64,000 bases of DNA from Pontiella sp. (GTDB lineage Bacteria > Verrucomicrobiota > Kiritimatiellia > Kiritimatiellales > Pontiellaceae): the NCBI GenBank assembly GCA_050290185.1, contig JBNKHE010000001.1, positions 194,713 through 258,712 of the forward strand. Direction: 5' to 3'. The notes beneath the pieces are model-generated. The model searched no databases. It worked only from the letters and a program-made list of their open reading frames with translations, and was not told the origin of the DNA. Position 1 is the stretch's first letter. Each line of letters begins with the position of its first letter. Below are positions 34,688 through 60,375 of the stretch, one piece after another. The translations under genes were made by a program, and so were the position numbers.

Positions 34688-34695
34688 GAAAGGAA

Positions 34696-35763: not shown

Positions 35764-35779
35764 TAACATGGAGGCAAAC

Positions 35780-38592: not shown

Positions 38593-38595
38593 CGA

Positions 38596-40632: not shown

Positions 40633-40704
40633 TCCACCCCTACCCGACCCAGTCCGAAGCCATCAATCACGTCGCCGGTCTTAACAACCAAACCCGCCTC
40701 ACCC
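40629..40704 (+). pseudogene. 76-bp remnant of the 3' part of the disulfide reductase gene
   Basis: 68/76 nt identical to 38467-38542 (VIHPYPTQSEAI...NQTRLT). Confidence 0.85.
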
Positions 40705-40900
40705 AAGGTCAACGTGTCAGTCGCTCCGCTCGCGTAAGCGCTCTCTACAACAGCGTCGGGCACTGAGGACCGACTTGTTGCGGCGAAGGCGTTCTGGAGT
40801 GCAGCGGCAACCAACGGGCGACGCCGCTTTTCGGATCCAGCGGCTCTGCGCACGGAACGCGGCGGCAACTGAAAGTCGACGCCGCGTCCCAGGATTTCTT

Positions 40901-41953
40901 TTACTTGGAAAACAGGTTCTTGTACTGGCCATAGCCTTCCTTTTCCAGGTCTTCCTTGGGGATGAAGCGCAGGGCGGCGGAGTTCATGCAGTAGCGTTTT
41001 CCGTTCGGCCGTGGTCCGTCATTGAAGACGTGACCGAGGTGCGAATTAGCGTGCTTACTTCTGATTTCCGTTCGTCGGCTGAAGAAGCTGTTGTCTTCCT
41101 TTTCGACGATGTTTTTCGGCTCCAGCGGACGGGTGAAACTGGGCCAGCCGGTGCCGGATTTAAACTTGTCCTTCGAGGAAAAGAGCGGCTCGCCGGATAC
41201 AACATCAACGTAGATGCCCTCTTTATGGTTGTCCCAGTATGCGTTGTGGAATGGCGGTTCGGTGCCGCTTTCCTGGGTGACCCGGTACTGCAGCGGGGTC
41301 AGTTTCTTTTTCAGCTCGTCCTTGGTGTAGGTGACGCGTTTTACGATGTCGGCGGTCGGGTCCATCTTGTCCCGGCCCTTACCCCAGACCTTGTCGAGGT
41401 ATTGGTCGCGCCCCGAACGGCTGCGGTAGTATTTGTACTTGATGGGATGCTCGCTGTGATAATTCTGATGATGATCCTCGGCGCGATAGAATTTTCTAGC
41501 GGGAAGGATTTCAACGGTAACCGGCTTGTTATAAATCCCGGAGTCCTGCAGTTCCTGCTTCGATTGTTCGGCGATCTCTTTCTGTTTGTCATCCTTGTAG
41601 AAGATGACGGGTCGGTATTGCGGGCCGCGGTCGACAAACTGCCCGCCGCTATCCGTCGGATTGATCTGCCGCCAGAATACATTCAGCAGCTGATGGTAGG
41701 TGATTTTGGCCGGATCATAGGTGACTTTCACCACTTCAACGTGGCCCTTTTCTGCATAGTCCCCGTAGGTGGGATCGAGCCCCGTGCCACCACTGTAGCC
41801 GGATACGGCTTCCTTCACGCCCGGCAACTCATCAAACGGGGTTTCCACGCACCAGAAGCAACCTCCTGCAAAAATGGCGGTTTCCGCCATGGGTTCGGCC
41901 GCTTGTAGAATGGATCCTGCAAAGGCCAGTACTGCGATTAAGATATATTTCAT
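40901..41953 (-). CDS. msrAB: Exported bifunctional methionine sulfoxide reductase MsrA/MsrB
   Basis: Signal peptide; MsrA GGCFWC and AEDHHQNY; Msr[21 protein letters not shown]. Confidence 0.95.
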
Positions 41954-41980
41954 TTCAAACCTTCCTTTCATCTACTCCTA

Positions 41981-42008
41981 TATTCGGATGTACTGTCTGG
42001 ATGTGACC
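41981..42008 (-). promoter_or_regulatory. Putative ECF promoter of msrAB
   Basis: Minus strand reads GGTCACA-N14-CCGAATA. Confidence 0.65.
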
Positions 42009-42064
42009 GTAAATCGCAGATGATTTTCTCCTCGTCATACGGAAGAGGGTCGGAATAAATATCG

Positions 42065-43315
42065 ATGATGAATTCCACGCAACGTTTGATTTTGTTTACC
42101 CGGCTTCCCCAACCCGGAACGACCAAGACCCGAATGATTCCCCACTTGGGTGCGGAAGGTGCGGCGCAGCTGCAAAAGCAGATGACGGAGCATACGGTTC
42201 GCCAAGCCCGCAAAACCGGTGTGCCGATTGAAATCCGCTACACCGGCGGTTCGGAACAGCAGATGCGCGAATGGCTGGGCGGCGATCTCGATTATGCGGA
42301 ACAGGGCGACGGCGATCTGGGTGAACGCATGCGGCGGACGTTTGAAAAGCATTTTTCAACCCGGGCCGAGCGCGTGGTCATTGTCGGGTCCGACTGCCCT
42401 TCCAATGGCTGGAAAAACATGCAGGAGGCCTTTCGCGCGTTGGAAAACACGGATTGCGTGTTGGGTCCTGCGAGTGATGGCGGATACTATTTGATTGGTT
42501 TGTCTAGGGCTGGGACCGAGATCCAGCCCCTATTTGAGGGTATCGACTGGGGCGGTTCGGATGTATTAGAGCAGACCATGAAGGCCGCCGCCGGGCTTTC
42601 GATTCATCAACTTCAAATGCTTCACGACGTCGATCTACCGGAAGACATTCCTCCCAAGATTTCGGTCGTTATCCCAACCCTGAACGAAGAGACGCATCTG
42701 GCCCAAACGCTGGAACGTGTAGGCGAAGGCTTCAACGTCGAGGTGATCGTGGTGGATGGCGGCAGCACGGACGGAACGCGGGCGATTGCGCCCGATTGCC
42801 TGACGTGTTCGGAGGGACGGGCCGCGCAGCAAAACATGGGGGCAAAGGCAGCTTCGGGGGAACTTCTCCTCTTTCTGCATGCCGATACGATCCTTCCAAA
42901 CGGCTGGGATTGGATCGTGCGCGAAACATTGTCCGATCCGTCGGTCGATCTGGGTGCTTTCACCTTCAAGATCCGCGAGGCTTTCCCGGGGCAAAAGCTT
43001 ATCGAGAATGCCACCAACTGGCGCTCCCGTGTACAGCAGCTACCCTACGGCGACCAGGGGCTTTTCCTGAGCAAGGAAATCTTCGATGCGGTAGGCGGTT
43101 TCACGGATATACCGATCATGGAGGACTACGCCTTAGTTCGTTCGTTGCGCAAACATGGCCGCATCGTCACCGCTCCCGAATCGGCCGTTACCTCCGGCCG
43201 CCGCTGGAAACAGCACGGTGTTTTCAAGGTAACGCTGATCAACAAGCTGATGATCCTTGGTTACCACCTTGGGGTTCCTCCCGCCAAGCTCGCTCAATTC
43301 TATCGAAGTAAATGA
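42065..43315 (+). CDS. Fused TIGR04282-like (DUF2064/CofC-like) and TIGR04283-like glycosyltransferase
   Basis: FTRLPQPGTTKTRM, QGDGDLGERM, GSDCP, GPASDGGYYLIG, DVD..ED; then SVVIPTLNE, FLHADT, PYGDQG, MEDY, TSGRRW. Confidence 0.9.
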   Translation: MMNSTQRLILFTRLPQPGTTKTRMIPHLGAEGAAQLQKQMTEHTVRQARKTGVPIEIRYTGGSEQQMREWLGGDLDYAEQGDGDLGERMRRTFEKHFSTRAERVVIVGSDCPSNGWKNMQEAFRALENTDCVLGPASDGGYYLIGLSRAGTEIQPLFEGIDWGGSDVLEQTMKAAAGLSIHQLQMLHDVDLPEDIPPKISVVIPTLNEETHLAQTLERVGEGFNVEVIVVDGGSTDGTRAIAPDCLTCSEGRAAQQNMGAKAASGELLLFLHADTILPNGWDWIVRETLSDPSVDLGAFTFKIREAFPGQKLIENATNWRSRVQQLPYGDQGLFLSKEIFDAVGGFTDIPIMEDYALVRSLRKHGRIVTAPESAVTSGRRWKQHGVFKVTLINKLMILGYHLGVPPAKLAQFYRSK

Positions 43316-43345: not shown

Positions 43346-43852
43346 TCACGCATTTTGTTTTTCAAAGATACCCAGAGCCCATTCGGTGGCATTTTTCAGA
43401 TCGGTTTCATCGGGATGGCCGGCGGCATCCTTCCATAGTTTCTTGCGCGACTCGGTGGGACCATAGCCGTGATCCTTCGGTAGGGCCTCCATCCATTCAA
43501 TCAGTTCCGGATCGATCGCGCCCTGGCAGATGAAATGGCCAATGATTTCACAATCCGGAATAAGTTTGGCCGTGGCATCAAGGCTTTCGGCCGCATGCTT
43601 GGAATCGGGATAGGCACCGAGAGTGGCAAACAGGGCCACCTTCTGCCCCGAGAGCCGTTTCATATAAAGCTGCATATTTTCATCCGCCGTGCCGTTTTCA
43701 ACCCAGAAGCCAAGCAGGATCAAATCGTAGTTGCACGGGTTGGGAGCCATCTCAACGCGACTTAAATCGGCACAAGGAAGTTCCAAGTGAATGGCTTGAG
43801 CCAATTTACGGGTGTTGCCGGTCTTGCTGGAATAGACGATCAAAGTTTTCAT
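43346..43852 (-). CDS. Flavodoxin family protein
   Basis: YSSKTGNTRKLA FMN-binding loop, GFWV, HPDETD. Confidence 0.88.
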   Translation of the reverse strand: MKTLIVYSSKTGNTRKLAQAIHLELPCADLSRVEMAPNPCNYDLILLGFWVENGTADENMQLYMKRLSGQKVALFATLGAYPDSKHAAESLDATAKLIPDCEIIGHFICQGAIDPELIEWMEALPKDHGYGPTESRKKLWKDAAGHPDETDLKNATEWALGIFEKQNA

Positions 43853-44095
43853 TTAGCTACCTCATTGCGTTGAACGCTGATTTGTTTTCAAAGGGTGTGG
43901 TCTCAGCATTCCTGTCTTGAGTCCCGGCGTCAAGGTTCACCTGACCTGAATGCGTGAAAAAACGCCGAAAATACCCCGCGGGTTTAAAAGGATCGGCCCA
44001 AAAGGACCGTCATACGTGCCATTCCGCCGTAAACCAGCATTCCCAGGAAACCGATGCGGATGAATCTTCGTATCCTATACCTAATAATCTGGATT

Positions 44096-44114
44096 TGTGG
44101 GGAATATCCCCACA
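44096..44114. promoter_or_regulatory. 19-bp palindromic operator (copy 1, perfect)
   Basis: TGTGGGGA-ATA-TCCCCACA. Confidence 0.75.
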
Positions 44115-44156
44115 CGCCACGCGACTCGACTAGTGGACCTAACCAAAGGAGACACT

Positions 44157-45341
44157 ATGCGAGTTATACGAAAAGCCGGATGGCTGTTGTTGATCGGAAC
44201 CGGATTGCTCTGGCCACAGCAGGGATGGGGAACGTTCCAGGGAGGAATTCTGGTATATGCATGGGACAGCAGTTCCGGCCTCACCCCTCCCCCCTCGACG
44301 TCCGCCCAACTTGATACCAATTCTAGCCAATCTTTCGGCACCAACAATCTGATAATATTTGATGGCTATTTCGAGGCCGGAACACATGTGGTTGAGGTAT
44401 CGAGCGGATCCCGCGGATATGTTCCTCGCCCAAGCCCCACCGACCCGGATGCCTTGAGCGATCCCTATTCGGCTTATGGAAATCCTCGCTATGTCCATAT
44501 TTCGGAAACCACGAATCTCGTGCCCGTCAGCTTCCAGTTTGACCCGGTGGTTACAGTTTCGGCGGTGGTGCGCGATGCATGGACCATGGAGCGGTTGGCC
44601 GACGCCTCCATCCAGTTCATCTTCGAAGGATCCACCGATAAAATCACTATTACCAAATACCCTTCAACGGCCACGTATGCATCAAACTGGCTCAGCGATG
44701 CATCGGGGAATTTCCCCACAAACACGATACTTTATCTCCACAATTATGACATACGCATGACCAAACCCGGCTACCTGCCGTTCATTGAAGCCAATGTGAT
44801 CAGCAATGCTCAGCCAGGGGATGTCATCGACCTTGGAACGATTTTCATGGAACCCATCGACAACAATACAAATCAGATTGCCGATGTGTGGGAGGCTGAA
44901 TTTTTTGGAACAAACAGCACTGTCACAGCCGAGGTAGACGTCGATGGAGACGGCATATCGAATCTCGGCGAATACATCACCGGAACCGATCCCACCAACC
45001 AACCGAGTTGCCTGCGGGTTGAGACCTCCCTCGCCACGAATGGGCTTTGGCTTACATGGCCCACGGAACCGGATCACACCTACCGCGTCTGCGGCACCAC
45101 GAATCCATGCGCCGACAGCTGGTTGCAGGTGGGGGGGCCGTGGACCGCCACCAACGGCCAATATGAAATGGTCTGGGCGGAAACCAACATGGATCTAAGC
45201 TGGAATAACGCCTATCGCGTGGAAGTCGTTCCATGCTGGTGGCAAGGAACCAACCAGGTGCTGATCAATACCAACATGCCTGTTTTTAAAGGAGGAACCA
45301 ATACGTGGGGAGGAGATCTAGATCTACCGCCGATCCCTTGA
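44157..45341 (+). CDS. Secreted beta-rich protein (carboxypeptidase-regulatory-like domain, DxDGDG motif, C-terminal module)
   Basis: GGAGA RBS, signal peptide, VRDAWT..L..A.I, YDIRMTKPGY, DVDGDGISNLGEYITGTDP. Confidence 0.75.
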   Translation: MRVIRKAGWLLLIGTGLLWPQQGWGTFQGGILVYAWDSSSGLTPPPSTSAQLDTNSSQSFGTNNLIIFDGYFEAGTHVVEVSSGSRGYVPRPSPTDPDALSDPYSAYGNPRYVHISETTNLVPVSFQFDPVVTVSAVVRDAWTMERLADASIQFIFEGSTDKITITKYPSTATYASNWLSDASGNFPTNTILYLHNYDIRMTKPGYLPFIEANVISNAQPGDVIDLGTIFMEPIDNNTNQIADVWEAEFFGTNSTVTAEVDVDGDGISNLGEYITGTDPTNQPSCLRVETSLATNGLWLTWPTEPDHTYRVCGTTNPCADSWLQVGGPWTATNGQYEMVWAETNMDLSWNNAYRVEVVPCWWQGTNQVLINTNMPVFKGGTNTWGGDLDLPPIP

Positions 45342-45387
45342 GGTTAAATCAGCGTATCCGAAAAAGGCCGTATCGGTGCATATGCTA

Positions 45388-45414
45388 TGTGGGGAAACTC
45401 TCCACAAAGCCTTT
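45388..45414 (+). promoter_or_regulatory. Operator copy 2 / 27-bp direct repeat
   Basis: TGTGGGGAAACTCTCCACAAAGCCTTT, identical to 46453-46479. Confidence 0.75.
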
Positions 45415-45491
45415 TGTTCGCAATCTAGTATTTTTTGCTAGATTAGGTGTCCGTTGCAAACGGAGCACCAACGCATACGAAAGGACCTCAA

Positions 45492-45845
45492 ATGGAAGAG
45501 ACATCGAACCGAAAACTTGGCACCCGAAAAGATGGCAGTCTGTTTGATGAAGCAACCATTGAAGCCGTATGGATAAAAGGGGTGCCCGCGCAGGAAGTTG
45601 ACTCGCTCAGGAAAGACAGATACGGAGCATTAATGGCTCGTTCTGAATATGGCGAAACAACACGCCACGGATGGGAAATCGATCATATCATACCGGTTTC
45701 AAAAGGCGGAACAGACAGTCTGTCCAACCTGCAGCCTCTACATTGGGAAAATAATCGTTGCAAGAGCGATAACCTGCTCGATCTGGACCGCGAAGAATCC
45801 CGTATTCCACACGATACGCATGGTACAGACCGGCCATCATCATAA
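45492..45845 (+). CDS. Small HNH endonuclease family protein
   Basis: WEIDHIIPVSKGG.D.LSNLQPLHWENNR.K; ATG 45492 after AAGGA. Confidence 0.88.
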   Translation: MEETSNRKLGTRKDGSLFDEATIEAVWIKGVPAQEVDSLRKDRYGALMARSEYGETTRHGWEIDHIIPVSKGGTDSLSNLQPLHWENNRCKSDNLLDLDREESRIPHDTHGTDRPSS

Positions 45846-45901
45846 ACAACAAAACCACGCCGTTAGATAAATATTTCAGGGATTGGGATGCTAACAGACA
45901 A

Positions 45902-46432
45902 ATGAACTTCCACGAATCAAGACTCTTAAGAATACGCCCCTTTCGGCAGGCATTGGCTGAGATTTTAATGGCGACGTTTGATCAAATGTCGGATGAAGAA
46001 TGGCTGAATTTCAGGCAACAGCAACTTGTTTTTTTTCAATCCTCCATCCCTCCCAAATCAAGCGAAACACTGAAGAACAAGTGGGATCGAGTGGTTCCCG
46101 CCGGGTGTATCAGCGTCATCAATGCGCAATCGGAATATGTCAGCGCAACGGTCGAAGCAATGATTGAAATAGCGGTTGGGACCCACACATCCAAGTTCAA
46201 TATACCGCTTTCGATTCTGTTGAAAACCACGAGATCCTCCCTTGCAAAAGACGCGGCTGCCCTCCCTCGCAATATCTTCAAGATTGGCATTCATACCATG
46301 GTGCTCACGCGGCTGGCTGCACATGCGCTCGTCCATGAAATACAGGTTGCGTTGACCTCCACGCAAAAGTCCAGGCCCAAGCGACTGGAGGTGGTATTTT
46401 GTATTCTTCCTCCGGAAGTCCTCAATGCATGA
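45902..46432 (+). CDS. Hypothetical protein
   Basis: 176-aa ORF filling the gap; no recognisable motif. Confidence 0.5.
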   Translation: MNFHESRLLRIRPFRQALAEILMATFDQMSDEEWLNFRQQQLVFFQSSIPPKSSETLKNKWDRVVPAGCISVINAQSEYVSATVEAMIEIAVGTHTSKFNIPLSILLKTTRSSLAKDAAALPRNIFKIGIHTMVLTRLAAHALVHEIQVALTSTQKSRPKRLEVVFCILPPEVLNA

Positions 46433-46452
46433 TACCGGTCGTGGCACCCTTT

Positions 46453-46479
46453 TGTGGGGAAACTCTCCACAAAGCCTTT
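46453..46479 (+). promoter_or_regulatory. Operator copy 3 / 27-bp direct repeat
   Basis: Identical to 45388-45414. Confidence 0.75.
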
Positions 46480-46582
46480 GCTTCACCATTGCCAGAAACA
46501 CGTTAGACTCATTCGCATCATTTTACGGCACAGTCAGTAGCTTTCCGGGGATTCGTGTCCCCTTGAAATGGAGAAGGAATAG

Positions 46583-46891
46583 ATGGGACCATTGATGTAC
46601 AGACACCGACCGTACTACACGGCACTGATTGCCGCGGCCGTCGTTCTGGTGTTTGGTATGTGCGTGAGTTGCTGCCTGAAGAATCGGGTTGAGATCGGAG
46701 AGGCCAACCGTTCGACCGTAGCCTTGGTTATCTGTCTGACGGCCGCGATCTCCGGCGCTTTGGTGATCTCCGCCTTTGCCCGCTACACATTCACCCACCT
46801 CTGGAAAACACCCGATCCCGCCTTCGCGAAAAAAAAGCGGCAAAAAGGACGCAGACCGGGATACAACAAACCAGGTCGGGTAGATTCCTGA
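46583..46891 (+). CDS. Small two-TM protein with basic tail
   Basis: AAGGA RBS, two hydrophobic segments, KKKRQKGRR tail. Confidence 0.6.
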   Translation: MGPLMYRHRPYYTALIAAAVVLVFGMCVSCCLKNRVEIGEANRSTVALVICLTAAISGALVISAFARYTFTHLWKTPDPAFAKKKRQKGRRPGYNKPGRVDS

Positions 46892-46913
46892 CAGACATAA
46901 CCACGCACCGGTT

Positions 46914-48656
46914 TTAAAAATGCCAAATCGCTGAAACGAAGAGCTGGTGCTTGGTGACGTCGGAACGGACGGCTTGTCCTGCCAGGAGTGAGTCCCTGAC
47001 GTTGTTGCCTTGCTCAAAGATGTAGGCCACATCCAAAATGGTCTTTCCGGTTTCCTTACCGAGCGAGATCCCTGAACCGAGGCTGAAGCCCCAGTATTCG
47101 TCCGGCGCTCCAACAGCTGGGCGCTGCTCCCAGAACATGCCTCCGCGCAGCGGGATTTCCGTCTGCGACAGCACACACACATACTCACCTCCGAGGCGGA
47201 TGGACCAACAGTCGTCCAGCATTGAGGAGGAATGGGGTTCGCCGTTGACGGGATTTATGCGCGCTTCGCCTTCCGCCTTGTAGCTGTACTCCGACCAATA
47301 CGTTCGGCTAGTATCCATGGAGATATAGAGCCGATCGCTCCAGCGCCACAGGGCACCGACCGACCAGTAGAGCGGGAAGGTATATTCCACATCGCGTGTC
47401 TGGGCATCCCGAAACACGGTGTTGGCCACCTGGACCAGATTGCTATCGAACGTGGAAACCTGATGATCGACTCGCTTGGTCTGCTTGCCATAGCCCGTCC
47501 ATGGCAGATCGACCGTTGCGCCAATCGTCAGCTTTTCGCTAGCGGCCCAGAGCGCACCGAGAGTGGCATTGATGCCATGAAAATCTTCCGTATCATTATC
47601 CTCACGGTATATACCTGCAACCGTATAGGCATCTACCTGCACGTTGGTTTGCACATCGGAAAACGTGTTGGTTACCGTTTCTTCTGGAACAGGAATCGTA
47701 ATTGGATCGGACGGATCACCGGTGTATCGCTCTCCGGAATAGGTATTTACCGCCGTCGAACTGCGTGTGGTAGTGATGTCGGAAATGCTGTCGGACGAGC
47801 CCGAGTATTCCGCAACGAGTGTGGACTCAATCGGATTTCCGCGGCTGGCTCCGTCGGTATAGAGGTTGACTGCGATCCCGAGTGAAAACTGCGGCGTAAC
47901 ATCAAGAGCAAAGGCCGGAGATAATGCATCGATGGTTCCCTCCTGCCTAAAATCGATGCTGGAAAGCAGCGTGGAATTAAGCACTTGATGGATATCGCTT
48001 CGCGCCGCTGTCGTGACATCGGCCACAATTGTCAGGCTCTGGTTGACATCGCTATAATACAGGTTCGTGGACTGAACGAAGGTTTGGTTGATATTGGTGT
48101 CGATATTCTGACTGGCCTGCCCGCTGAAACGGGCCGTAAATTCATAGGTATAATCATAGGCTTCCTGATAGTTGAGGGAAACCACGGCATTGCGGTCGTT
48201 CAGGAGAAATGGATAGACGGCGCTGAGATAGTTGAGTTCGCTACTGGCATAACCATCATCTCCGGATTCCAGTGCACTGGTTTGGGATTCGTGGGCATCT
48301 TTCTCCGCCGAAAAGCGATAGACCGCCGAAACCTCCGGGAATTCAAGCTGCACGAGGCCTGCCGGATTCCACGAAGCGGCCGTCGCATCGTCGGCGACAG
48401 CCGTGAACGCTCCGGCCTGCCCGAGCGCACGCGCACCGGAACCGACCGGGAGCGGTGCGGCGAAAATGGTTGGAGGACGGAAGCCGGCATTGGCCGGCGG
48501 ATCAGGCTCCTCCAGTTGCCCCGTCGGTCCGGCATGGCTGATGTCCAATTCAACCGCTCCCCCCGGCGTCACGATCACCACAGGCACCGCGCGCAGCGCG
48601 CTGGAAAACGCGATGCTGGCAGCAAAAATGACGAAGGATATACGGAACTGCTTCAT
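46914..48656 (-). CDS. Outer-membrane beta-barrel, OmpP1/FadL/PorV-like
   Basis: Signal peptide from ATG 48656; GSGARALGQAGAFTAVADDATAASWNPAGL; C-terminal W-H-F. Confidence 0.85.
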   Translation of the reverse strand: MKQFRISFVIFAASIAFSSALRAVPVVIVTPGGAVELDISHAGPTGQLEEPDPPANAGFRPPTIFAAPLPVGSGARALGQAGAFTAVADDATAASWNPAGLVQLEFPEVSAVYRFSAEKDAHESQTSALESGDDGYASSELNYLSAVYPFLLNDRNAVVSLNYQEAYDYTYEFTARFSGQASQNIDTNINQTFVQSTNLYYSDVNQSLTIVADVTTAARSDIHQVLNSTLLSSIDFRQEGTIDALSPAFALDVTPQFSLGIAVNLYTDGASRGNPIESTLVAEYSGSSDSISDITTTRSSTAVNTYSGERYTGDPSDPITIPVPEETVTNTFSDVQTNVQVDAYTVAGIYREDNDTEDFHGINATLGALWAASEKLTIGATVDLPWTGYGKQTKRVDHQVSTFDSNLVQVANTVFRDAQTRDVEYTFPLYWSVGALWRWSDRLYISMDTSRTYWSEYSYKAEGEARINPVNGEPHSSSMLDDCWSIRLGGEYVCVLSQTEIPLRGGMFWEQRPAVGAPDEYWGFSLGSGISLGKETGKTILDVAYIFEQGNNVRDSLLAGQAVRSDVTKHQLFVSAIWHF

Positions 48657-48658
48657 AT

Positions 48659-48745
48659 TGCGGGGGAATCTACCACAATCGAAGCCGCCCCCAAACGTAC
48701 GAAACATCGGAAAGTCGTTGATTTTTTGTAGGGGATTCCCCCACA
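48659..48745. promoter_or_regulatory. Two operator copies in the barrel/sigma divergent spacer
   Basis: TGCGGGGG-AAT-CTACCACA (48659-48677) and TGTAGGGG-ATT-CCCCCACA (48727-48745). Confidence 0.65.
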
Positions 48746-48863
48746 TTTTCTGCGCGGAAAAAGAATATACTTTCATCGCAACACTGCCATAATTGCTTTG
48801 GTTCTATGTGAATTTAGACGTCCTCTGGTGAGAGCCCAACCAACGAAAAGCTAGACAGTTTGT

Positions 48864-49478
48864 ATGTATAAGATCCATCCAGATTCTGATCAGGAAATCA
48901 TCGATGCGATACGCGGAAAAAATCGCCTCGGGTGGGAGCTTTTGTTCGCCCGGTACGATCCGCTCATTCAATCCATCGCACGATGGCCCAAATGGAATTT
49001 GTCGGAAGACGAGCAACAGGATGTCTGTCAAAACATCCACATGCATCTCCAGACCGCCCTGCCGACCTTCAGGCAGCAAAGCTCGCTCTCATGGTTTATC
49101 AAGAAAATCGCCATGCGCCAATGCGTCAACGAAATTCGGCGGCAGAAGCGCTGGCGAACCGTCATGACACCATCCATGCAGAAAACGACCGACGGAAACT
49201 GGAATGAGATGGAGTTTGCGTCTACCCCAGACAACGACCCCTATAACGAAGCCGTCCAGCACGAACGACAACGACTCCTCGAGTCAGCCCTGCAGCATTT
49301 ACAGCAGACCTGCAAAGACAGCATCCGCATGTTTTATCTGCAACACCTCTCCTACCGGGAAATGTCCGAACAACTTGGAATAGCCGTTAATACCGTCGGC
49401 AGTCGGCTCTCCAAATGTCTCGACAAACTTCATCACGAACTCCGGCAACATCCATCGTTCGAAAGGGCTGAGCAATGA
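48864..49478 (+). CDS. ECF sigma-70 factor
   Basis: QDVCQNI region 2; SYREMSEQLGIAVNTVGSRLSKCLDKL region 4. Confidence 0.9.
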   Translation: MYKIHPDSDQEIIDAIRGKNRLGWELLFARYDPLIQSIARWPKWNLSEDEQQDVCQNIHMHLQTALPTFRQQSSLSWFIKKIAMRQCVNEIRRQKRWRTVMTPSMQKTTDGNWNEMEFASTPDNDPYNEAVQHERQRLLESALQHLQQTCKDSIRMFYLQHLSYREMSEQLGIAVNTVGSRLSKCLDKLHHELRQHPSFERAEQ

Positions 49479-50185
49479 GTGATATAACAACTCTGATCTG
49501 GGCATATCTCCACGACGAACTGTCCCCGGAGAGCAGGAACCATTTTGAAAGTGCGCTGGAGGATAGTCCGAGTCTGCGCAAAGCCCTTGAAGAACAGCGG
49601 GCAACGCACGAAGAGCTAAAAAGCATCCTGCCCCTCATCGAGGCCGAAACAGCAAACGATGAGCAACAGGAAGAACAGTTGATCGCTGAATGGGAAGCGG
49701 AACATCCGGAATTCGCCGAACCGCCGCAGCAGCAAAAGTCCCAAGGCCGAATCATGCGCTTCGCGATACCACTCGCCGTTGCGGCTGCGGCGTGCGTGGT
49801 ACTGCTCGCCCTCCCCGGACATCAGGGCCCGGTCTACTGGCAGAACACGCTTTATGGTACCGCCCCGCAGTTGCGCGGCGAATCCGCAGCCCATCCGCGC
49901 TACAACCAAACCGAACTCGAGCAGGTCAGCCGGCAGCTGCAAAACATTATTGAAGACCACATCGCAAGGCTTCCCGACTCTGCCGAACCGTGGAAGCTCA
50001 AGATTCACCTGCAGGAACTGGCCGGAGGTTATCTGGCCGTAGAAGTCTCCGGACACCCCGCAAACCGGCCGAAACGCTCTCGGACATGGGATGCAACCTT
50101 CCAGGGGAAGGATCGTTTCGATGCAGAGGCTTCCGGGTTCGGCAAACGCATCGCCAACGATCTCGCGGAACAGGACGTACCATGA
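49475..50185 (+). CDS. Putative single-pass anti-sigma factor
   Basis: ATGA-coupled to the sigma gene. LIWAYLHDELSPE.R..FE..L anti-sigma-like start, central TM helix, periplasmic C-domain beginning with LRGE. Confidence 0.75.
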   Translation: MSDITTLIWAYLHDELSPESRNHFESALEDSPSLRKALEEQRATHEELKSILPLIEAETANDEQQEEQLIAEWEAEHPEFAEPPQQQKSQGRIMRFAIPLAVAAAACVVLLALPGHQGPVYWQNTLYGTAPQLRGESAAHPRYNQTELEQVSRQLQNIIEDHIARLPDSAEPWKLKIHLQELAGGYLAVEVSGHPANRPKRSRTWDATFQGKDRFDAEASGFGKRIANDLAEQDVP

Positions 50186-52083
50186 TTCGTAAAGTGCGGC
50201 TTCGATCCGGATTGCTGATCGCCGCAATGGCCCTTGTGTTCTCCGGCTGCACGTCCATTCGGAGCTACCGCAGCGCCGATCCCTACGTGATCACCCATCA
50301 TACCTGGTGGAACCATTACCAGCGCGGTCGCCTCCTGCTGCAAGAAGGAAACTATGCCGCAGCCCGCAAAGATTTCGAAATCGCCCTAGGACGGGTTCCG
50401 GGCGCGCGCTATCCCTATGCCCAGGAACGATGGCGCGCGCGCACCTACGGCATGCATATGATCGAGGGCTACTTCCCGCATCGGGAACTCGGAATCTGCC
50501 TGTTTGAAATGGATGAGCCCGCAGAAGCGTTGACCCTCTTGGAAACCTCCATGAAATTGGAACCCTCTGCTCGTGCAAAATTCTATATCAACCGCACCCA
50601 CGCAAAACTTGCCGAGGCCGCGGCACCTCCCCCCGTCATCGCGATCGATCCCCTCCCGGACTGGACCGGACAGAGGAACTACATCCTGCAGGGAACCGCC
50701 CTGGGATCAAACCGGATAGCCCGTCTCCGCATCAATGGCGAGCCGGAATTCATCGAACTGGCCACCCATCTGGTCCGTTTCCGAAAAAGCATCCCGCTCA
50801 CGGAGGGACACAATTCGATCCACATCGACGCCGAAGATATCTCCGGCAAACAGACCTCGACCAATCTGGTGCTGAGGGCCGACTGGACGCCTCCGCAAAT
50901 CTACCTCAGCCGCAACGGCACGGACCTTGTCATTACCTGCCGGGACAACCTCGGCCTCCATCAGTTGCAAACCGGCAACCGCACTCTATCCACCGACGGA
51001 ACGGAGTATACGTTTACCCAGCCGATCCTGCCGGACCAGCCCATTCGACTGACCGCCACCGATTGGGCCGGAAACAAAACCGACTGGGCGCTGTCTGAAA
51101 AAGAACTGCTGCATCTGGCCAGACGCACCGAAGCCGGACCGCCACGGGTACAAATCGACAATGCCGGAAAGAACCTCGTACTCTTCAATCCGGAATACAG
51201 CATGGATATTCGAGTGGATGATGATGTTGCGTTGAAATCGGTTGAACTCAACGGCGAAAGCTTGTTATCACGCACCACGCCCCTGTTCCGAACCCTTCGC
51301 CGCATTCCGCTTGTACCGGGCACCAACAATCTGGTCGTGATCGCCGAGGATTTTGATGGCAACCGAACGGAGAAGCGCGTCAGTGTAATTTACCGCAACC
51401 CCGAATATCTCGACCGAATCTACCGCCTCGCCGCCATGTGCTCGCCTCTTTCCGGCGAAATATCCGATCCGGCAATGGCACTACGGATCGATCACCTGAT
51501 CGAGAACACCCTGACCAGGGACCCGGTTCGATTCTACCTGCTCGCTCCAGATAACGAAACCCGGCAACTGCAAAGCGAACAGACCCTCTCGAATAGCGCC
51601 CTGGCCGACCCGCGCGCATTATTGAAAGCCGGTAAACTGCTGGATGCCGACTTGCTCTTTGCAACCCGGATATTGAGCGATGCCCCCGGGCAGACCGTTT
51701 ATACGCAGGTGCTGGACGCCCATAGCGGAGAGGAGCTGTTCATCGAGGATGTTTACGTGGAGAACCCCGATCGCTGGCCAGAGCAGTTGGATGGGCTGGT
51801 CATGAAGATTGAGCAACGTTTCCCGCTCATCCAAGGACGTGTACATACGTCGGGAAGCAGGCTGGTCATCAATGCCGGGGAGCGGAATGGCGCACAAAAG
51901 GGCATGCGGATGCTCGTGATCCGCTCCCAGGGATCCTTCGAACAGGGCCGCGTGGTCATGGACTCAAAGCGTCCGGTGGAACTCGTTATTTCCAGGGTTG
52001 CGTCCCAAACCTCCGAGGTTATAATGCCTCACGGACAACCCAGAGACTCTGTTCATGCGGGAGACTATGTTTTTTCAAGATGA
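50182..52083 (+). CDS. Lipoprotein with TPR, Ig-like repeats and CsgG/FlgT-like C-terminus
   Basis: FSGC lipobox; TPR (HYQRGRLLLQEGNYAAA); IPL..G.N.I...AED..G Ig-like units; LAD......GKLLDADLL; INAG..NG...G. Confidence 0.75.
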   Translation: MIRKVRLRSGLLIAAMALVFSGCTSIRSYRSADPYVITHHTWWNHYQRGRLLLQEGNYAAARKDFEIALGRVPGARYPYAQERWRARTYGMHMIEGYFPHRELGICLFEMDEPAEALTLLETSMKLEPSARAKFYINRTHAKLAEAAAPPPVIAIDPLPDWTGQRNYILQGTALGSNRIARLRINGEPEFIELATHLVRFRKSIPLTEGHNSIHIDAEDISGKQTSTNLVLRADWTPPQIYLSRNGTDLVITCRDNLGLHQLQTGNRTLSTDGTEYTFTQPILPDQPIRLTATDWAGNKTDWALSEKELLHLARRTEAGPPRVQIDNAGKNLVLFNPEYSMDIRVDDDVALKSVELNGESLLSRTTPLFRTLRRIPLVPGTNNLVVIAEDFDGNRTEKRVSVIYRNPEYLDRIYRLAAMCSPLSGEISDPAMALRIDHLIENTLTRDPVRFYLLAPDNETRQLQSEQTLSNSALADPRALLKAGKLLDADLLFATRILSDAPGQTVYTQVLDAHSGEELFIEDVYVENPDRWPEQLDGLVMKIEQRFPLIQGRVHTSGSRLVINAGERNGAQKGMRMLVIRSQGSFEQGRVVMDSKRPVELVISRVASQTSEVIMPHGQPRDSVHAGDYVFSR

Positions 52084-53720
52084 AATCGTACTTCCAGCCC
52101 ATTCTGCTTAGTGCCGTCGTATTGATGGTCGCGGCCTGCGGCCACAAGGAGCCAGAGACATCGCTGCAGAAAACCGGTCCGTCAACAGACCAGCCGCTTA
52201 ATTATTATGCGTTGGTGATCGGTGTCAGCGATTACTCGAGCACCGGCTGGCCGAATCTGGGAACCGCAGGCGATGACGCCAAGGCCATGGGCTCCGTTCT
52301 GCGAGACCGTTATGGCTTTAACGTCACGGAATTGACGGACAAGCAGGCAACCCGGGGGAATATCCTGCGTGCACTTGATCGGTTTATGCAGCTGACGGCC
52401 AACGATGCACTGCTCATCTATTTTGCCGGCCACGGCTATTACGACAAGCAGATGGACGAGGGCTACTGGATCCCATATGGCGCCAAGCGGCAGCGGATGG
52501 ACCAGCCAGCCAAGGAAGATTGGCTCTGGAACAGCAGCATCAACCGGGTGCTCGGCGCCCTGCCGGCCAGACATGTCTTGCTGGTCGCCGATACCTGCTA
52601 CGGCGGATCGCTTTTCCGGGGGGACGACAATCCCGACAAGTCCGGAAACTGGTACCGGCGCGCCATGTCGGTTCCGTCGCGCTACCTCATCACCAGCGGC
52701 AATCTGGAACCGGTGCTCGACAGCGGTATTCGCCATAGCGTCTTTGCACAGCAAATCCTCAACTACCTCCAATACACCGATGAGGATGTCTTTTCGGCAT
52801 CGGATATCGCCATATCCATCCGCTCCAAAGTGAGCGAGCTGACGGGACAGCTCGTGCGCATGGGCCCGTTGGCCTCCCCGGCCAATGCCGGTGGGGAATT
52901 TGTATTTGTTCGCGGTGAAACCGCATTGCCGCCGATCGAACCCGCTTCCGAAACAGCACCACAGATCACATCATTCAGCAGCACCGGAACACGCGGAGCG
53001 CTTGAGGATCTGGCCAACCAGATGGAACGCTATTCCAGCAAGGCATCAGACGACAGCTTTGTCCGTCCCCGCGTTCTCGCCTGCCTCGGACCAACCGGAG
53101 ACAATCCCGAAGAAACGGCGATGGTGCGCAATCGATTGTACGAGAGTCTGGATACAATCGGGGGATGCATCCTGGTTGAACGCGAAGCCTTCGACACCCT
53201 CCTGCAAGAAATGGAACTGGGGCAATCAAGGTTGGCCGACAAACGAGCCACGACCGAAATCGGAAAACTGCTTCCTGCCAGTCTGATTCTGTTCGGGGAA
53301 ATCATTCCCGTGGGCAACCGACAGGAAATCCACATCCGGATTGTCGATACCGAAACCTCGCGCGTACTCAGCTCCACTTCCGCGATGTTCACAAGCTACG
53401 ATGAACTGGAGGCCACCTGCCAGAAACTCGCCCGGCAGATCATGACGACCGTGAATCAGGCGCGCCCGGTATTGCTGGAGGCAAACGTTACGGACAACGG
53501 AACACTGCAAGCCGGATGGGGCCGATTCCACGGAGCCCACATCGGCGACACGTTCAAGATCATCACACGCGAGGCCGTCGGAACCATTTCCCAACGGGAT
53601 GTCCTGCTGGGAACAGCCCGTCTTCTTTCGCTGGGCGAAGAAACCGCCGAGTTCCAACCGGAATGGCGCAACTCCGAAACCAACCAGCCGGCTAGCCTGT
53701 GGCTGAAAGCAACGCTGTAA
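52080..53720 (+). CDS. Caspase-like (peptidase C14) lipoprotein with CsgG/FlgT-like C-terminus
   Basis: VAAC lipobox; YALVIG..DY, YFAGHG (catalytic His), VADTCYGG (catalytic Cys), HSVF; LVERE..D.LLQE.ELGQS...IGKLL.A. Confidence 0.88.
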   Translation: MKSYFQPILLSAVVLMVAACGHKEPETSLQKTGPSTDQPLNYYALVIGVSDYSSTGWPNLGTAGDDAKAMGSVLRDRYGFNVTELTDKQATRGNILRALDRFMQLTANDALLIYFAGHGYYDKQMDEGYWIPYGAKRQRMDQPAKEDWLWNSSINRVLGALPARHVLLVADTCYGGSLFRGDDNPDKSGNWYRRAMSVPSRYLITSGNLEPVLDSGIRHSVFAQQILNYLQYTDEDVFSASDIAISIRSKVSELTGQLVRMGPLASPANAGGEFVFVRGETALPPIEPASETAPQITSFSSTGTRGALEDLANQMERYSSKASDDSFVRPRVLACLGPTGDNPEETAMVRNRLYESLDTIGGCILVEREAFDTLLQEMELGQSRLADKRATTEIGKLLPASLILFGEIIPVGNRQEIHIRIVDTETSRVLSSTSAMFTSYDELEATCQKLARQIMTTVNQARPVLLEANVTDNGTLQAGWGRFHGAHIGDTFKIITREAVGTISQRDVLLGTARLLSLGEETAEFQPEWRNSETNQPASLWLKATL

Positions 53721-54384
53721 CAACCTCTTCGTCCGGACCCACGAGGCCCCGCATGGCCGCATGACGCATAAAGCTGGTTGCGGCGTATTGAAAATCCGCG
53801 CCTGTACTGAAATCCATCTTTGCCCGGATGCGTTCCCGGAAGCTTTCCACCGTCTTAACGCTTACGTTCATCATTGCGGCAATGCGTTGTGGAACATACC
53901 CACATCCCGTGAGGCAGAAAACCTCGGCCTCCCGCTTCGAAAGTTGCAACAGGCCTTCCTGTGTTACTTGCTCCTGCCGACGTAACTCACTCAAATACAG
54001 CATCTTCTTTCGGGCAGAACGAATGGCATCAACAAGATCCTTCATCGAATCCTGCGGAGTCACGTATCCGTCCGCTTCGGCTTGCAGGGCTTGCCCCAGA
54101 TCGGAGCTCTCAAACTCCGGGTCCCACGAAAGCGCCACAATGCTCAACCCGCAATAATCGCTTTTCAATTGCTGCAGCGAGGATATCCCGGCACTGCTCA
54201 ACGAAACATTCATGACCAGAACATGTGGCTTTTGCAGCTCGATCAAAGCCCTCACATCATCAATCCCGGATGCGATCCCGCACACATCAATACACGACTC
54301 CTGCTTTAGCCGCTCTACCATCATTCCACGCATCAGGCCATACTCATGGGCAACCACGACCCGAATCTTCTCATTCCGCACCAT
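53692..54384 (-). CDS. NarL/LuxR-family response regulator with degenerate receiver domain
   Basis: CAGGAGG RBS; LSKREAEVF..IA..MNVSVKTVESFRERI HTH; receiver lacks the canonical Asp and Lys residues. Confidence 0.88.
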   Translation of the reverse strand: MVRNEKIRVVVAHEYGLMRGMMVERLKQESCIDVCGIASGIDDVRALIELQKPHVLVMNVSLSSAGISSLQQLKSDYCGLSIVALSWDPEFESSDLGQALQAEADGYVTPQDSMKDLVDAIRSARKKMLYLSELRRQEQVTQEGLLQLSKREAEVFCLTGCGYVPQRIAAMMNVSVKTVESFRERIRAKMDFSTGADFQYAATSFMRHAAMRGLVGPDEEVVTALLSATG

Positions 54385-54439
54385 AACAACCTCCTGGTTC
54401 GATTTTACATAAGTGTTTGTCTCACCAGTCGGATGTGTA

Positions 54440-54528
54440 TGTAGGAATCTTCCCCACAAAATTAAAAAAAGGGGAAAATCCCCCACAACCAATCCCAATT
54501 AAACCTCAAGTTGGATTTTTCCCTTACA
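54440..54528. promoter_or_regulatory. Cluster of 2-3 operator copies upstream of the regulator
   Basis: TGTAGGAA-TCT-TCCCCACA (54440-58), AAGGGGAA-AAT-CCCCCACA (54469-87), GTTGGATT-TTT-CCCTTACA (54510-28, half-match). Confidence 0.65.
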
Positions 54529-54963
54529 GAATGGGTACGAAAACTTCCCCGGGAGCTGGTCGGCTCGGGGTGATAGCAATGAAAACCGGTTCTCCGTTTG
54601 GTTCGCAACTGGTTTCAGGTATCCTTTCCGGATAGCGATGCGAGTGGAGAGTGAACGGAGAATATGCCGCGATGCGACGGTGTTACGTGACCAGTTTTAG
54701 GGATGGAGAAAACGGGAAAGCCTGCATTTATTGGCGAAAACGGGTGGTATAATGAAAGAGCGAACCTCCGAAGAAGTTCGCTGAGCGTCGGAGACGAGAA
54801 GTCGTCGGTCTCCGCTTGCGCCAGAGGCGCGGCCCGGCGTGAACCTGTTCGCGTCACAGGAAAAAGAGGAAGAAAAGAGATAAAACAGGTGTTTCCGCAT
54901 GAGCCCCATCCGTAGCACGTTCCTTATTATCAGTATATCTTACCATTGATATCGTGGTGTTCC

Positions 54964-56283
54964 CTATTCCTTCCCGAGGGCGCTGAAGTTCGGGCCATCC
55001 AGTGTCATTTCATTCGGATCGGCCTTCATTTTAGGTACCAGTTTTTCGTTGACCGGAACGGTCTTGAAAACGGGGAGAACCTTGCGCGGCCCCGCATCGG
55101 ATGAAACCGTTCCATAGTTCTTCCCCTGCTGTTCGATTAGCAGACGACAACCGAACCAACCGCCGGGAATCTCGCCGATCACAACCTCCATGTCGGCCCG
55201 TTGTCCCTTTTTCAGATTAACCCAGTCCCCAACGACCAGACGGTTGGCCGCACACATATAGTTATTATCCCTATTGACAGACTGTCCATCGTCGCCCTTG
55301 ATTCCACCTAGCAGACCGCTAAATCCTCCGCCGTCGACAATCCCCTGGGCGAGCTTCGGAAAGACATCCCGCCAGTCAGCACCCTTGAATGCCCCATAGT
55401 CGGCCCGGTTGATCTGGAATTTCCGACTCTCCTCGTCGCGACTCTTCCAACTGGTCATCCTGCCGATATGCTCAGGCCAGCAGGCATCCAGAACCAGCCG
55501 TCGATTCACCCGAACCACCAGCACATCGTCCGCCAAGCCCCAAAACCGGAATTTCCCGTCTTCAGGCGCGACAATCTGGCCCCGGTAGACGCAAATCCAG
55601 TAGCTCGGCTTCACTTGGTCTGCCACGTCAAAAGCCTTTGGGGCGGCATTGGCAGACATCGGCGGAAAATTGAACGCAGTGACATATTTTTGTTTGGGGG
55701 CAACGAAATAGTCCCTCAGCTCCGCGGCCTTCATGCCCGATCGAATGAATCGGTTTATTTCCTGCATGCACAAATTCTGTGCCTCGGGGTTGAATGTGTT
55801 TTTCTCCGCCAACTTCCCGATATCCGTAAGTTTATGGTCCGGCGTTTGTTTCAGATCATAGAAATGGCCGATGAACTCGTTTCCGCTCCCCCGGCTTTTA
55901 CTGCTGCCGAACAAATCCATGTCAAAATTAAATCCGAGCCCTCCTAAACCCTCTCCACGACCGGCACCCATCCCCCCCACTACGCCGACGATTTCCGGCA
56001 TTTGTATTGTGACGGCCTTAAGCTTCGGCTTTGCGATGATGTTCTGCCGCAGTTTGGGAGCCTGCGTTTTCTTTTGCTTGACCGGCACTTGAAGTTTTCG
56101 AAGCTTCATTTTCGGACGTTTAACTTCCGTAGCCTCAAAACTCTGCTCGGGCTTGATGATCACCTGCACGGCAACAAAAGAGAAGGCCACGATAAGCAAT
56201 ACCGCGTGTATAATGACGCTCACGACCAGCGCACTCGATTTCCTGTGATTTAGAAAGTACCGCTTTTTGGGTTTGTTATCCAT
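54964..56283 (-). CDS. Membrane-anchored hypothetical protein with TonB-like N-terminus and PA14-like domain
   Basis: SVIIHAVLL TM (SxxxH), Lys/Pro-rich linker, G.I.APEDGKFRFWG.ADD.L.V.VN. Confidence 0.65.
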   Translation of the reverse strand: MDNKPKKRYFLNHRKSSALVVSVIIHAVLLIVAFSFVAVQVIIKPEQSFEATEVKRPKMKLRKLQVPVKQKKTQAPKLRQNIIAKPKLKAVTIQMPEIVGVVGGMGAGRGEGLGGLGFNFDMDLFGSSKSRGSGNEFIGHFYDLKQTPDHKLTDIGKLAEKNTFNPEAQNLCMQEINRFIRSGMKAAELRDYFVAPKQKYVTAFNFPPMSANAAPKAFDVADQVKPSYWICVYRGQIVAPEDGKFRFWGLADDVLVVRVNRRLVLDACWPEHIGRMTSWKSRDEESRKFQINRADYGAFKGADWRDVFPKLAQGIVDGGGFSGLLGGIKGDDGQSVNRDNNYMCAANRLVVGDWVNLKKGQRADMEVVIGEIPGGWFGCRLLIEQQGKNYGTVSSDAGPRKVLPVFKTVPVNEKLVPKMKADPNEMTLDGPNFSALGKE

Positions 56284-56468
56284 TTCGATCTCGGTCCATT
56301 ACCTGGCCTGCAACAGGCCGCCAGTGGTTCGCTTGTTTCCCGACATGTATTGAACAGACTATAGGCAGCCCCCGCCTTTTCAATCCGCATTTTCGAACGG
56401 AGCATTCTGAAACATGAAACTGCCGAGTCATTTCTCTGCATAGAAAAAACGGGGCGGCGAAGATGGGC

Positions 56469-56504
56469 AAAAACAATCGGCGGGATGCAAGCGCACCCCG
56501 CCGA
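56469..56504 (-). terminator. Terminator after the LamG-like gene
   Basis: Minus strand TCGGCGGGGTGC...GCATCCCGCCGA followed by TTGTTTTT. Confidence 0.7.
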
Positions 56505-56529
56505 CCATCTTGATCAACGTGCAATCGGG

Positions 56530-59433: not shown

Positions 59434-60069
59434 CTCCTCTAGCCATTCATCGTTGATCGGCATGGGTACGCACCCAAGGACACCGTTCCCAACGACAATC
59501 CTCCAATACGGAACCAGCCTTAGCCTTCTCGCATTTGTACCCATATTAATCATATTGATCCCTCTCGCAATCAGCACTATTGAATGGCCAATATACGATT
59601 ATGAAACTACCTTTGCGGCCTAACTGAATAAGGGATAGTGCTTTACTCGCATGCACATAATTCTGAAGAAGCGGACGCGCCAACCAGACGACCTGGTTTC
59701 GAATGCATATTGAAAAAGTGTAGCGTCTGCCACGCCTTCGCATTCCGCGATCTCTTTGGCAACCTTATCGTCAAGGCAAGGGCGAAATTCGATACAGTCC
59801 TGCGGCATGTAGCGGAATCGGCTGACTGAATTCTCTCTCAAAAGCACCGACATTCATTTGTGCCCACAGGTCGCGAACCGAGGCCTTGCCCCAGATTCCC
59901 AGATCCTTGTAATCGCCGGCGACCCTGCTGCGTTCCGGCTTCAGGTGTTTTTTGGGCGATTATCGACCGTACGGTTCTTTCTCACCGGATGAGGCCAGTT
60001 CCCGGTCGAGGTCTGTCAGCTTCAGTATTCCTGCCGGGCCGGAAACCGTCGGATCGATCCAGACTGCGC

Positions 60070-60280
60070 GGTCGTAGTATGTGCCCCGTTACCGCCATCC
60101 CCAGACGGCGGGTATTTTTTATGAGCACGTTGATATCAATCACATCCAACTTCGGTTCGCCGTCGATCCGACGGCTCTGGTAATCGGGATGCGACAAGTT
60201 GAATGGGTCGGCGTTGCTCTGCGCATTGAACAGCGCCACATATTTATCGTTGCTTCCAGGCACATCGACGATGTTTACGC
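60070..60280 (-). pseudogene. Probable remnant of a GH27 alpha-galactosidase C-terminal region (boundaries approximate)
   Basis: VDVPGSNDKYVALFN resembles the GH27 C-terminal beta-domain; no catalytic domain upstream. Confidence 0.45.
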
Positions 60281-60375
60281 CCACAAGAGAAACTTCGACT
60301 CCACATGGGAGGAAACCGCGACCGGCATCGCCGACAAAATATACCGCCGCGGAATCATATCGTGCACCTTTTCAT

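Follow-up and report, generated by a model that had tools for sequence, protein, structure and literature searches.

Which protein reads a 19-bp palindrome that recurs between the genes of one Pontiella sp. block, and what it does there, is the question raised by positions 44,096 to 54,528 of the window, meaning the whole 64,000-nucleotide stretch analysed (GenBank assembly GCA_050290185.1, contig JBNKHE010000001.1, positions 194,713 to 258,712 of the forward strand; host genome, 3.58 Mb). The first-pass annotation had described eight copies as binding sites of the NarL/LuxR-type regulator encoded at the end of the block, tying a secreted protein, an HNH nuclease, an outer-membrane barrel and a sigma factor-caspase operon into one programme. 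The reading favoured here, at slightly better than even odds, is that seven palindromes, with the consensus TGYRGKRR-W3-YYMCYRCA, are operators of that adjacent NarL-type regulator, which would be made under the extracytoplasmic function (ECF) sigma factor of the same block and would act as a feedback repressor. The seven copies are given below, scored with a matrix from 40 module sites of relatives, themselves picked with a first matrix; G, C, L and f numbers denote genomes, contigs, loci and families throughout.

44096..44114, copy 1, overlapping the ECF-type -35 element of the secreted-protein gene, 27.7 bits
45388..45406, copy 2, at the start of the variable cargo slot behind the secreted-protein gene, 25.3 bits
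46453..46471, copy 3, upstream of the gene of a small membrane protein, 25.3 bits
48659..48677, copy 4, covering a predicted extended -10 element and ending 2 nt before the barrel ATG, 24.1 bits
48727..48745, copy 5, in the divergent region between the barrel and sigma genes, 25.6 bits
54440..54458, copy 6 (site B), over the predicted -35 element and most of the spacer of the regulator gene, 18.0 bits
54469..54487, copy 7 (site A), weaker, 29 bp from site B, 13.7 bits

All seven lie where they had been placed and are intergenic, with gene starts set by ribosome-binding sites and orthologs; the eighth, a half-match at 54510, is ruled out as a copy by its score of -15.8 under the relatives' matrix. 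An intragenic near-match at 44702 (17.7 bits) falls close to the chance range and the remaining positions of the window score at most 14.5 bits, in line with the earlier statement that the palindrome is absent elsewhere in the window. Allowing up to three mismatches, the window holds 6 matches versus 0.79 ± 0.91 in shuffled sequence, a count of 6 being reached in 0 of 100 shuffles. In the whole genome, 12 sites score at least 20 bits, compared with 0, 0 and 0 in three order-4 Markov genomes, under a matrix trained on these same sites. The relatives' matrix finds 16 sites of at least 18 bits, 13 of them intergenic (p 5e-8 for a non-coding share of 0.18), of which six belong to the block and seven to contigs C4, C6 and C10. 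The scan of the genome and its relatives that had been proposed as a check thus reveals sites beyond the block, yet with a clear intergenic bias; the motif is enriched in the block without being confined to it, and the unlinked strong copies on the three contigs rule out the purely local motif first described.

The candidate reader is encoded at the right end of the block:

53692..54384, minus strand, atypical NarL/FixJ-family regulator, pseudo-receiver followed by a GerE helix-turn-helix (HTH) domain

The protein matches PF00196 above and PF00072 just below the cut-off, and its structural model (pLDDT 85.9) combines a receiver fold with an HTH and resembles VraR, LiaR, RcsB and NarL, placing it in the NarL/FixJ family. 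The phospho-acceptor column is occupied by Asn in 53 of 59 homologs and by Asp in none, the conserved Lys is likewise present in 0 of 59, the first acidic position is Gln or His and the acidic pair is lost, a pattern that disqualifies it as an ordinary phosphorylated response regulator. No kinase domain was detected among the block proteins or the scanned neighbours; given the missing acceptor Asp and the lack of an adjacent kinase, the activity of the regulator likely follows its synthesis. By analogy with BldM and WhiI, it is thus likely controlled by the amount made. The f3 sister clade (L074, L076, L077, L079, L159) also comprises atypical regulators with Asn at the acceptor position, encoded in multi-kinase clusters, and in G030 and G369 a palindrome lies inside such a cluster.

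By footprinting, the adjacent protein is the best candidate reader, as had been suggested. A site of at least 12 bits occurs within 600 bp upstream in 13 of 18 ortholog loci, our own included, versus 0 of 49 rows of other NarL proteins (44 distinct paralog loci, the rows including four duplicates and one mis-sorted ortholog fragment). The two-site layout, at about -104 and -73, is kept in several orthologs with a spacing of ~31-32 bp, and the site behind the secreted-protein gene recurs in the equivalent position in 9 of 12 genomes. Of 89 genomes of the order, 30 have the HTH clade of the regulator, counted with the f3 sister group that carries a nearly identical recognition helix. Before coding matches were filtered out, strict palindrome matches occur in 20 of the 30 clade genomes versus 9 of the 59 others; seven matches were dropped as coding, two seen inside genes and five sequence-identical to those. 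Strict non-coding matches then remain in 17 of 30 versus 8 of 59 genomes, and outside the module in 15 of 30 versus 7 of 59, while a reversed-pattern control matched 1 of 89; related genomes are non-independent, so p-values for this association are overstated. The shape of the site also has a family precedent. The UvrY/GacA box, a NarL-family inverted repeat with TGT-R-R-G outer ends (TGTGAGAGATCTCTTACA; consensus TGTAAG-N6-CTTACA), has similar ends and therefore fits a NarL-family reader of the palindrome; that box is 18 bp long, needs phosphorylated UvrY and activates small-RNA genes from far upstream (PMC4682653, excerpt), whereas the palindrome of the block is 19 bp long and departs from the 18-bp TGTAAG-N6-CTTACA form.

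The host genome encodes only two other NarL-type regulators, a C7-type and a C11-type, the fourth GerE match being a sigma factor. Strict matches in genomes without the clade or the module accompany the C11-type protein in only 3 of 23 cases, and it was dropped as a candidate reader. The C7-type protein deserves more attention: it could bind the palindromes by itself or in a heterodimer with the atypical regulator, and it is linked to a second palindrome located 36 bp beyond copy 2:

45424..45442, AT-rich palindrome TCTAGTA-W5-TGCTAGA, a variant of TAGTA-W5-TACTA with the geometry of the 19-bp motif

TAGTA-W5-TACTA occurs at 13 places in the host genome and in 43 of 54 family-f1 genomes versus 0 of 33 in f3, which makes it a candidate genus-wide operator. 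Its distribution follows that of the C7-type regulator (G000 C7:189784-190449), both being present in 37 genomes and neither in nine, with two and six discordant. A C7-type reader is favoured by the half-site geometry that the two motifs share, by the adjacency of AT-rich and GC-rich sites at 45388/45424, on C10, at C1:334002 and in G007, G340 and G328, by the existence of hybrid sites, by the divergent arrangement of the two regulator genes as neighbours in G004, and by the BldM-WhiI heterodimer as precedent (PMC4125116, excerpt). However, the C7-type protein and the AT-rich motif are each found in 0 of the 33 f3 genomes searched, in which modules nevertheless carry GC-rich sites, and of the 27 genomes with a C7-type protein but neither clade nor module, four have a strict match and 23 do not. 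Some other NarL protein, most plausibly the C7-type one, is therefore an unlikely reader, and we keep the adjacent atypical regulator in that role.

What the regulator would do at its sites is suggested by promoters that overlap two of them, a feature missed in the earlier description:

44157..45341, plus strand, secreted protein of 394 aa with a signal-peptide-like start, no Pfam match
44101..44125, plus strand, ECF-type promoter of the secreted-protein gene: -35 GGAAT at 44101-44105, 16 nt, -10 CGAC at 44122-44125
54428..54453, minus strand, ECF-type promoter of the regulator gene: -35 GGAAG at 54453-54449, 17 nt, -10 CGAC at 54431-54428
48864..49478, plus strand, ECF sigma factor, PF04542 and PF08281, TIGR02937 above cut-off, supported by alignment

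A -35 element of the GGAA type is typical for ECF sigma factors. Copies 1 and 6 (44096 and 54440) share bases with the pattern GGAA(G/T)-N16/17-CGAC, whose spacing agrees with the 16-18 bp given for ECF promoters (PMC7776599, excerpt). Alignments of the regions upstream of regulator orthologs preserve GGAA(G/T)ATT followed by CGAC, also in orthologs with a decayed right palindrome half. The pattern stands upstream of the regulator in 17 of 17 relatives, a partly circular count in that it was first noticed in those very regions, and, as an independent test, upstream of the secreted-protein gene in 10 of 10 relatives, versus 9 of 2724 upstream regions of the host genome. A relatives-only matrix ranks the regulator promoter (54455, minus strand) first and the secreted-protein promoter (44099, plus strand) second genome-wide. 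The full palindrome is present at the secreted-protein promoter in 3 of 11 genomes, the promoter persisting without it in the other 8 of 11; an ECF-type element also accompanies the distant module L181, in which the sigma factor is present and the fetched locus contains no regulator. The most conserved signal at these two copies is, judged by sequence pattern, a promoter of the ECF type. A sigma-70 scan returned five promoter-like sites versus 8.0 expected.

These promoters invite the reading that the palindrome is a by-product of the -35 element, with no reader of its own, since what both keep invariant is the left half, GGGAA(G/T)A. Against it, a CGAC partner is lacking at four of the seven copies and at the seven unlinked intergenic sites, and the barrel site, which has no ECF element at all, also conserves the right half, so that we regard a mere by-product as very improbable.

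The barrel site itself is the best conserved of the series:

46914..48656, minus strand, FadL/PorV-like outer-membrane beta-barrel, PF03349 E 2.6e-10

The TGnTAGATT extended -10 element reported within copy 4 is indeed there, as TGgTAGATT on the minus strand (48675-48667), 10 nt before the ATG at 48656. The palindrome occupies the equivalent place in 13 of 14 barrel-bearing genomes, ending 2-3 nt before the start codon, and the form T[AG]TGGTAnA[AT]H is kept there in 10 of 14; this conserved departure from palindrome symmetry, forming TRTGGTAnAW, supports an extended -10 element, from which the barrel mRNA would be near-leaderless. Only 4 of 14 genomes have the second site of the divergent region (at 48727 in this genome), leaving the proposed palindrome control of the sigma-caspase operon weakly supported. 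GGAAT-N17-CGAC also points toward the barrel within the copy 5 region (48739-48714, minus strand); present in only 1 of 14 genomes, it was rejected as a general ECF promoter of the barrel gene.

The same reader and the same sigma factor could instead work together, the regulator serving as co-activator at the ECF promoters in a feed-forward or positively autoregulated circuit. This would suit the two sites about three helical turns apart before the regulator's own gene, the position of the site upstream of, rather than over, the -35 element of the secreted-protein gene in G162 and G004, and the activator function of the BldM homodimer (PMC4125116, excerpt). It sits poorly with the best-conserved site of all, which covers the extended -10 element and reaches almost to the barrel start codon, and with site B, which spans the -35 element and most of the spacer; a co-activator is hence judged improbable, and a feedback repressor is the role that we retain.

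The genes around these sites form a conserved module, as indicated by sequence comparison, consisting of the barrel, the ECF sigma factor, an anti-sigma factor, predicted TPR and caspase lipoproteins, the NarL-type regulator and the secreted protein. The members not listed so far are:

49475..50185, plus strand, single-pass anti-sigma factor of 236 aa, PF13490
50182..52083, plus strand, TPR / Ig-like / FlgT_C protein with a lipobox-like start
52080..53720, plus strand, caspase-family (C14) protease with a CsgG-like domain, PF00656 E 3.7e-16, PF03783, lipobox-like start

Both lipobox-like starts were read from the sequence. The close module, fragments counted, is tallied in 22 of 89 genomes of the order, with the gene order kept; profile matches among the same genomes amount to 17 for the regulator and 21 for the TPR protein, two of them distant. 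In 301 genomes sampled from the phylum, strong regulator matches come from this order only, and named homologs of the block proteins belong mostly to Kiritimatiellales/Pontiellaceae. This also holds for the 50 close homologs of the secreted protein, some of which carry TSP3_bac repeats. The barrel qualifies by Pfam membership as FadL/TodX only, scoring below the NCBIfam cut-offs for PorV (35.4 vs 90 bits) and BamG (51.7 vs 250 bits). Several cases of module decay were encountered, including (i) G018, in which a second copy of the regulator is truncated and adjoins a transposase-like ORF (L033:785-1300), (ii) G162, in which the regulator is matched in its C-terminal part only (L187 near 9300-9550), and (iii) G338 and G351 (L192; L193), which have no TPR gene and decayed palindromes.

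The sigma factor, of about 200 aa with sigma2 and sigma4 regions only, and the adjacent membrane anti-sigma have the composition of an ECF sigma/anti-sigma pair; no Cys was found in the N-terminal domain of 12 aligned anti-sigmas, which sets them apart from zinc-binding anti-sigma factors. Directly outside the membrane helix lies a PxxRG motif in which P and G are conserved in 12 of 12 and R in 11 of 12 aligned sequences. Caspase-family proteases of this type are known for Arg-directed cutting. The His-Cys dyad of the caspase is intact, GHG and DxC being present in 21 of 21 distinct matches, in agreement with C14 membership. When anti-sigma residues 112-236 were modelled in complex with caspase residues 36-300, the score was 0.52 (runs 0.52, 0.58 and 0.13; best of three controls, 0.00), with at least 90% contact agreement and partner pLDDT of at least 77. 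Among solved complexes 116 of 157 pass the mark, as do 2 of 215 mismatches, the band above it up to 0.60 holding 18 of the 157 solved complexes plus both passing mismatches; the modelled contact between the two proteins is thereby weakly supported. Distant modules in G007 and G340 contain TIR_2 in place of the caspase domain (L184:8677-10206, L186:11511-13094), and L183:10945-13353 has TIR_2 fused in front of it; the TIR versions keep the CsgG-like domain and the TPR partner.

Taken as a circuit, the module might operate as follows. An envelope signal would activate the lipoprotein caspase, aided by the TPR lipoprotein, and the caspase would cut the anti-sigma on its periplasmic side, probably at the conserved PxxR-G, releasing the sigma factor. 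The sigma factor would then read the GGAA(G/T)A-N15/16-CGAC(T) elements seen before the regulator and secreted-protein genes. A regulator dimer, once made, would occupy the palindromes and block the ECF -35 element of its own gene and, in this genome, of the secreted-protein gene, as well as the extended -10 element of the barrel gene, and would also act on the cargo slot and on about five unlinked loci.

A number of observations weigh against this reading. Five of the 18 ortholog loci miss the 12-bit threshold, comprising two degenerate modules (5.5 and 5.0), one locus at a contig end (10.5), one at 11.4 and the truncated second copy. A strict non-coding match is missing from 13 of the 30 clade-bearing genomes, and in the f3 sister clade, which shares the HTH, the 600 bp upstream of the regulator gene contain no site. 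Strong copies exist in G007, G340, G328, G348, G023 and G330, for which neither the HTH clade nor a close module was found; several of these adjoin the AT-rich motif and may have a different reader. The genome encodes 17 proteins with sigma-70 region 2, and linkage is therefore the sole basis for assigning the promoters to the sigma factor of the block. About half of ECF sigma factors autoregulate (PMC7776599, excerpt), and no GGAA(G/T)-N16/17-CGAC toward the sigma gene was found in 17 regions, leaving this one outside the autoregulated group. The TIR domain in the caspase's place in G007 and G340 indicates that some versions of the module can do without a caspase, and the choice of repressor over activator would follow from the position of the sites only.

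Copies 2 and 3 bracket the region between the secreted-protein and barrel genes (window 45341-46914), which holds different genes in different genomes:

45492..45845, plus strand, HNH endonuclease, cargo, PF01844 E 5e-9
45902..46432, plus strand, 176-aa ORF of no known family, cargo, with homologs in the equivalent slot of G006 and G349
46583..46891, plus strand, small protein with two hydrophobic stretches, with 54-59% identical homologs in G304, G349 and G009

The 176-aa ORF gave no Pfam match and no usable Atlas match. The HNH nuclease, placed in the common programme by the first-pass annotation, stands behind a palindrome and is variable cargo, recurring in only one other fetched module (G349). 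Across relatives the slot, located after the secreted-protein gene or before the barrel gene, appears to be a hotspot for cargo, and the palindrome copy at its head hardly varies (L084, L178, L162, L148, L082, L032), with cargo that includes HNH genes, a lipase_3 cluster and ORFs without known family.

This setting brings up a different function for the copies, as RNA hairpins (terminators) or as recombination sites for cassette insertion. The copies do fold as hairpins (z -2.0 to -4.4), 46450-46474 is called terminator-like, and copies 2 and 3, which share 27 identical bp, flank lower-GC cargo that differs between genomes. Any palindrome folds, though, and orthologous copies in G015 and G304 break pairs; moreover, three copies are upstream of or on predicted promoters, Rfam yields no match at gathering score in 43800-60400, and the 13 proteins scanned include no recombinase. 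Such a function instead of an operator is accordingly rated as having little probability. A recent target-site duplication around the HNH gene is also unlikely, G304 showing the two-copy layout with other cargo.

Beyond the block, strong unlinked sites of the host genome face two ~1550-aa LamG/PA14/TSP3 proteins, with pairs of sites 31 bp apart, and further ones face a NERD nuclease, an HPr-like gene and a WYL protein. A LamG protein akin to the ~1550-aa targets on C6 and C10 is also encoded in the window (56530-59463), with no strong site upstream. In relatives, some sites face Pycsar, AriA/AriB-like, QatA, JAB-ThiF and HNH genes, a partly hand-picked set with no background rate, the PADLOC matches having come from 30 proteins chosen by eye. 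By manual count, and again with no background rate, ~10 of 40 non-module sites face defence-type or nuclease genes, about half of them in genomes without the clade, making a defence link a lead only. The copies at L062:4926, L146:4333, L156:197 and L061:5011 are situated in apparently mobile regions, next to a radical-SAM or ssb-like gene and ahead of qatA or a JAB-ThiF operon; some of the genomes concerned do not have the regulator clade. Elsewhere in the window, positions 54964-56283 encode a 439-aa protein outside Pfam and NCBIfam families, with ~10 paralogs in the genome, three of them 51-59% identical over their full length, and positions 33755-43315 contain a cluster of radical SAM, methyltransferase, glycosyltransferase and DUF2064 genes, presumably a candidate relative of arsenosugar-type clusters.

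By analogy, each part of the proposed circuit has a precedent in DdvS/DdvA, PCaspase with PCc-sigma, or sigmaBldN-BldM. In Streptomyces, sigmaBldN transcribes the gene of BldM and sigmaWhiG that of WhiI, both orphan atypical NarL/FixJ regulators; BldM works without phosphorylation and binds a palindrome as a homodimer, and sigmaBldN also drives surface proteins, comparable to the predicted secreted-protein target of the block (PMC4125116, excerpt). In contrast to sigmaBldN-BldM, the sigma factor, anti-sigma, protease and regulator are encoded here in a single cluster of a Kiritimatiellales-type host, the input would be a lipoprotein caspase, and the 19-mer operator is placed on the sigma factor's own predicted promoter. 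The input side resembles Myxococcus DdvS/DdvA, which comprises an ECF sigma factor, a single-pass anti-sigma, TPR and a caspase-family protease, with proteolytic release proposed; DdvA is a TPR-CHAT protein fused to a zinc-binding anti-sigma and controls CRISPR/CBASS genes (PMC11506125, excerpt). Unlike that system, the TPR and C14 proteins of the block are separate predicted lipoproteins rather than a fusion, the zinc cysteines are absent, and no CRISPR/CBASS genes are found in the block. A C14 caspase-like protease is likewise encoded with a sigma factor in the Haliangium PCaspase / PCc-sigma / PCi / PCk system, which is triggered by cOA/SAVED-CHAT and includes a kinase and an inhibitor (10.1101/2023.06.23.546230, excerpt), none of which is among the block genes. 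The module would thus join a sigmaBldN-BldM-like circuit to a DdvS/DdvA-like input. A literature search, with subscription journals mostly uncovered, returned nothing on the union of these parts in one cluster, on the motif, or on any regulatory motif for this lineage.

A bolder and rather improbable extension pictures an envelope-conflict circuit in Kiritimatiellales, in which a lipoprotein caspase (TIR in some relatives) would cut the anti-sigma at PxxR-G, the freed sigma factor would make a phosphorylation-free NarL protein whose operator lies over the sigma factor's -35 element, and this protein, possibly paired with a second one on hybrid sites, would act across the genome on anti-phage genes (Pycsar, PARIS-like, Qat), on giant surface proteins and on a hotspot for cargo. 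Under the operator reading itself, the locus offers a complete and testable wiring for a caspase-linked ECF module, with a predicted cut site, sigma promoter, operator and targets; it bears on the possible roles of bacterial caspase-family proteases beyond CRISPR and abortive infection, and it illustrates how synthesis alone may control a pseudo-receiver regulator, with operator and sigma promoter sharing bases.

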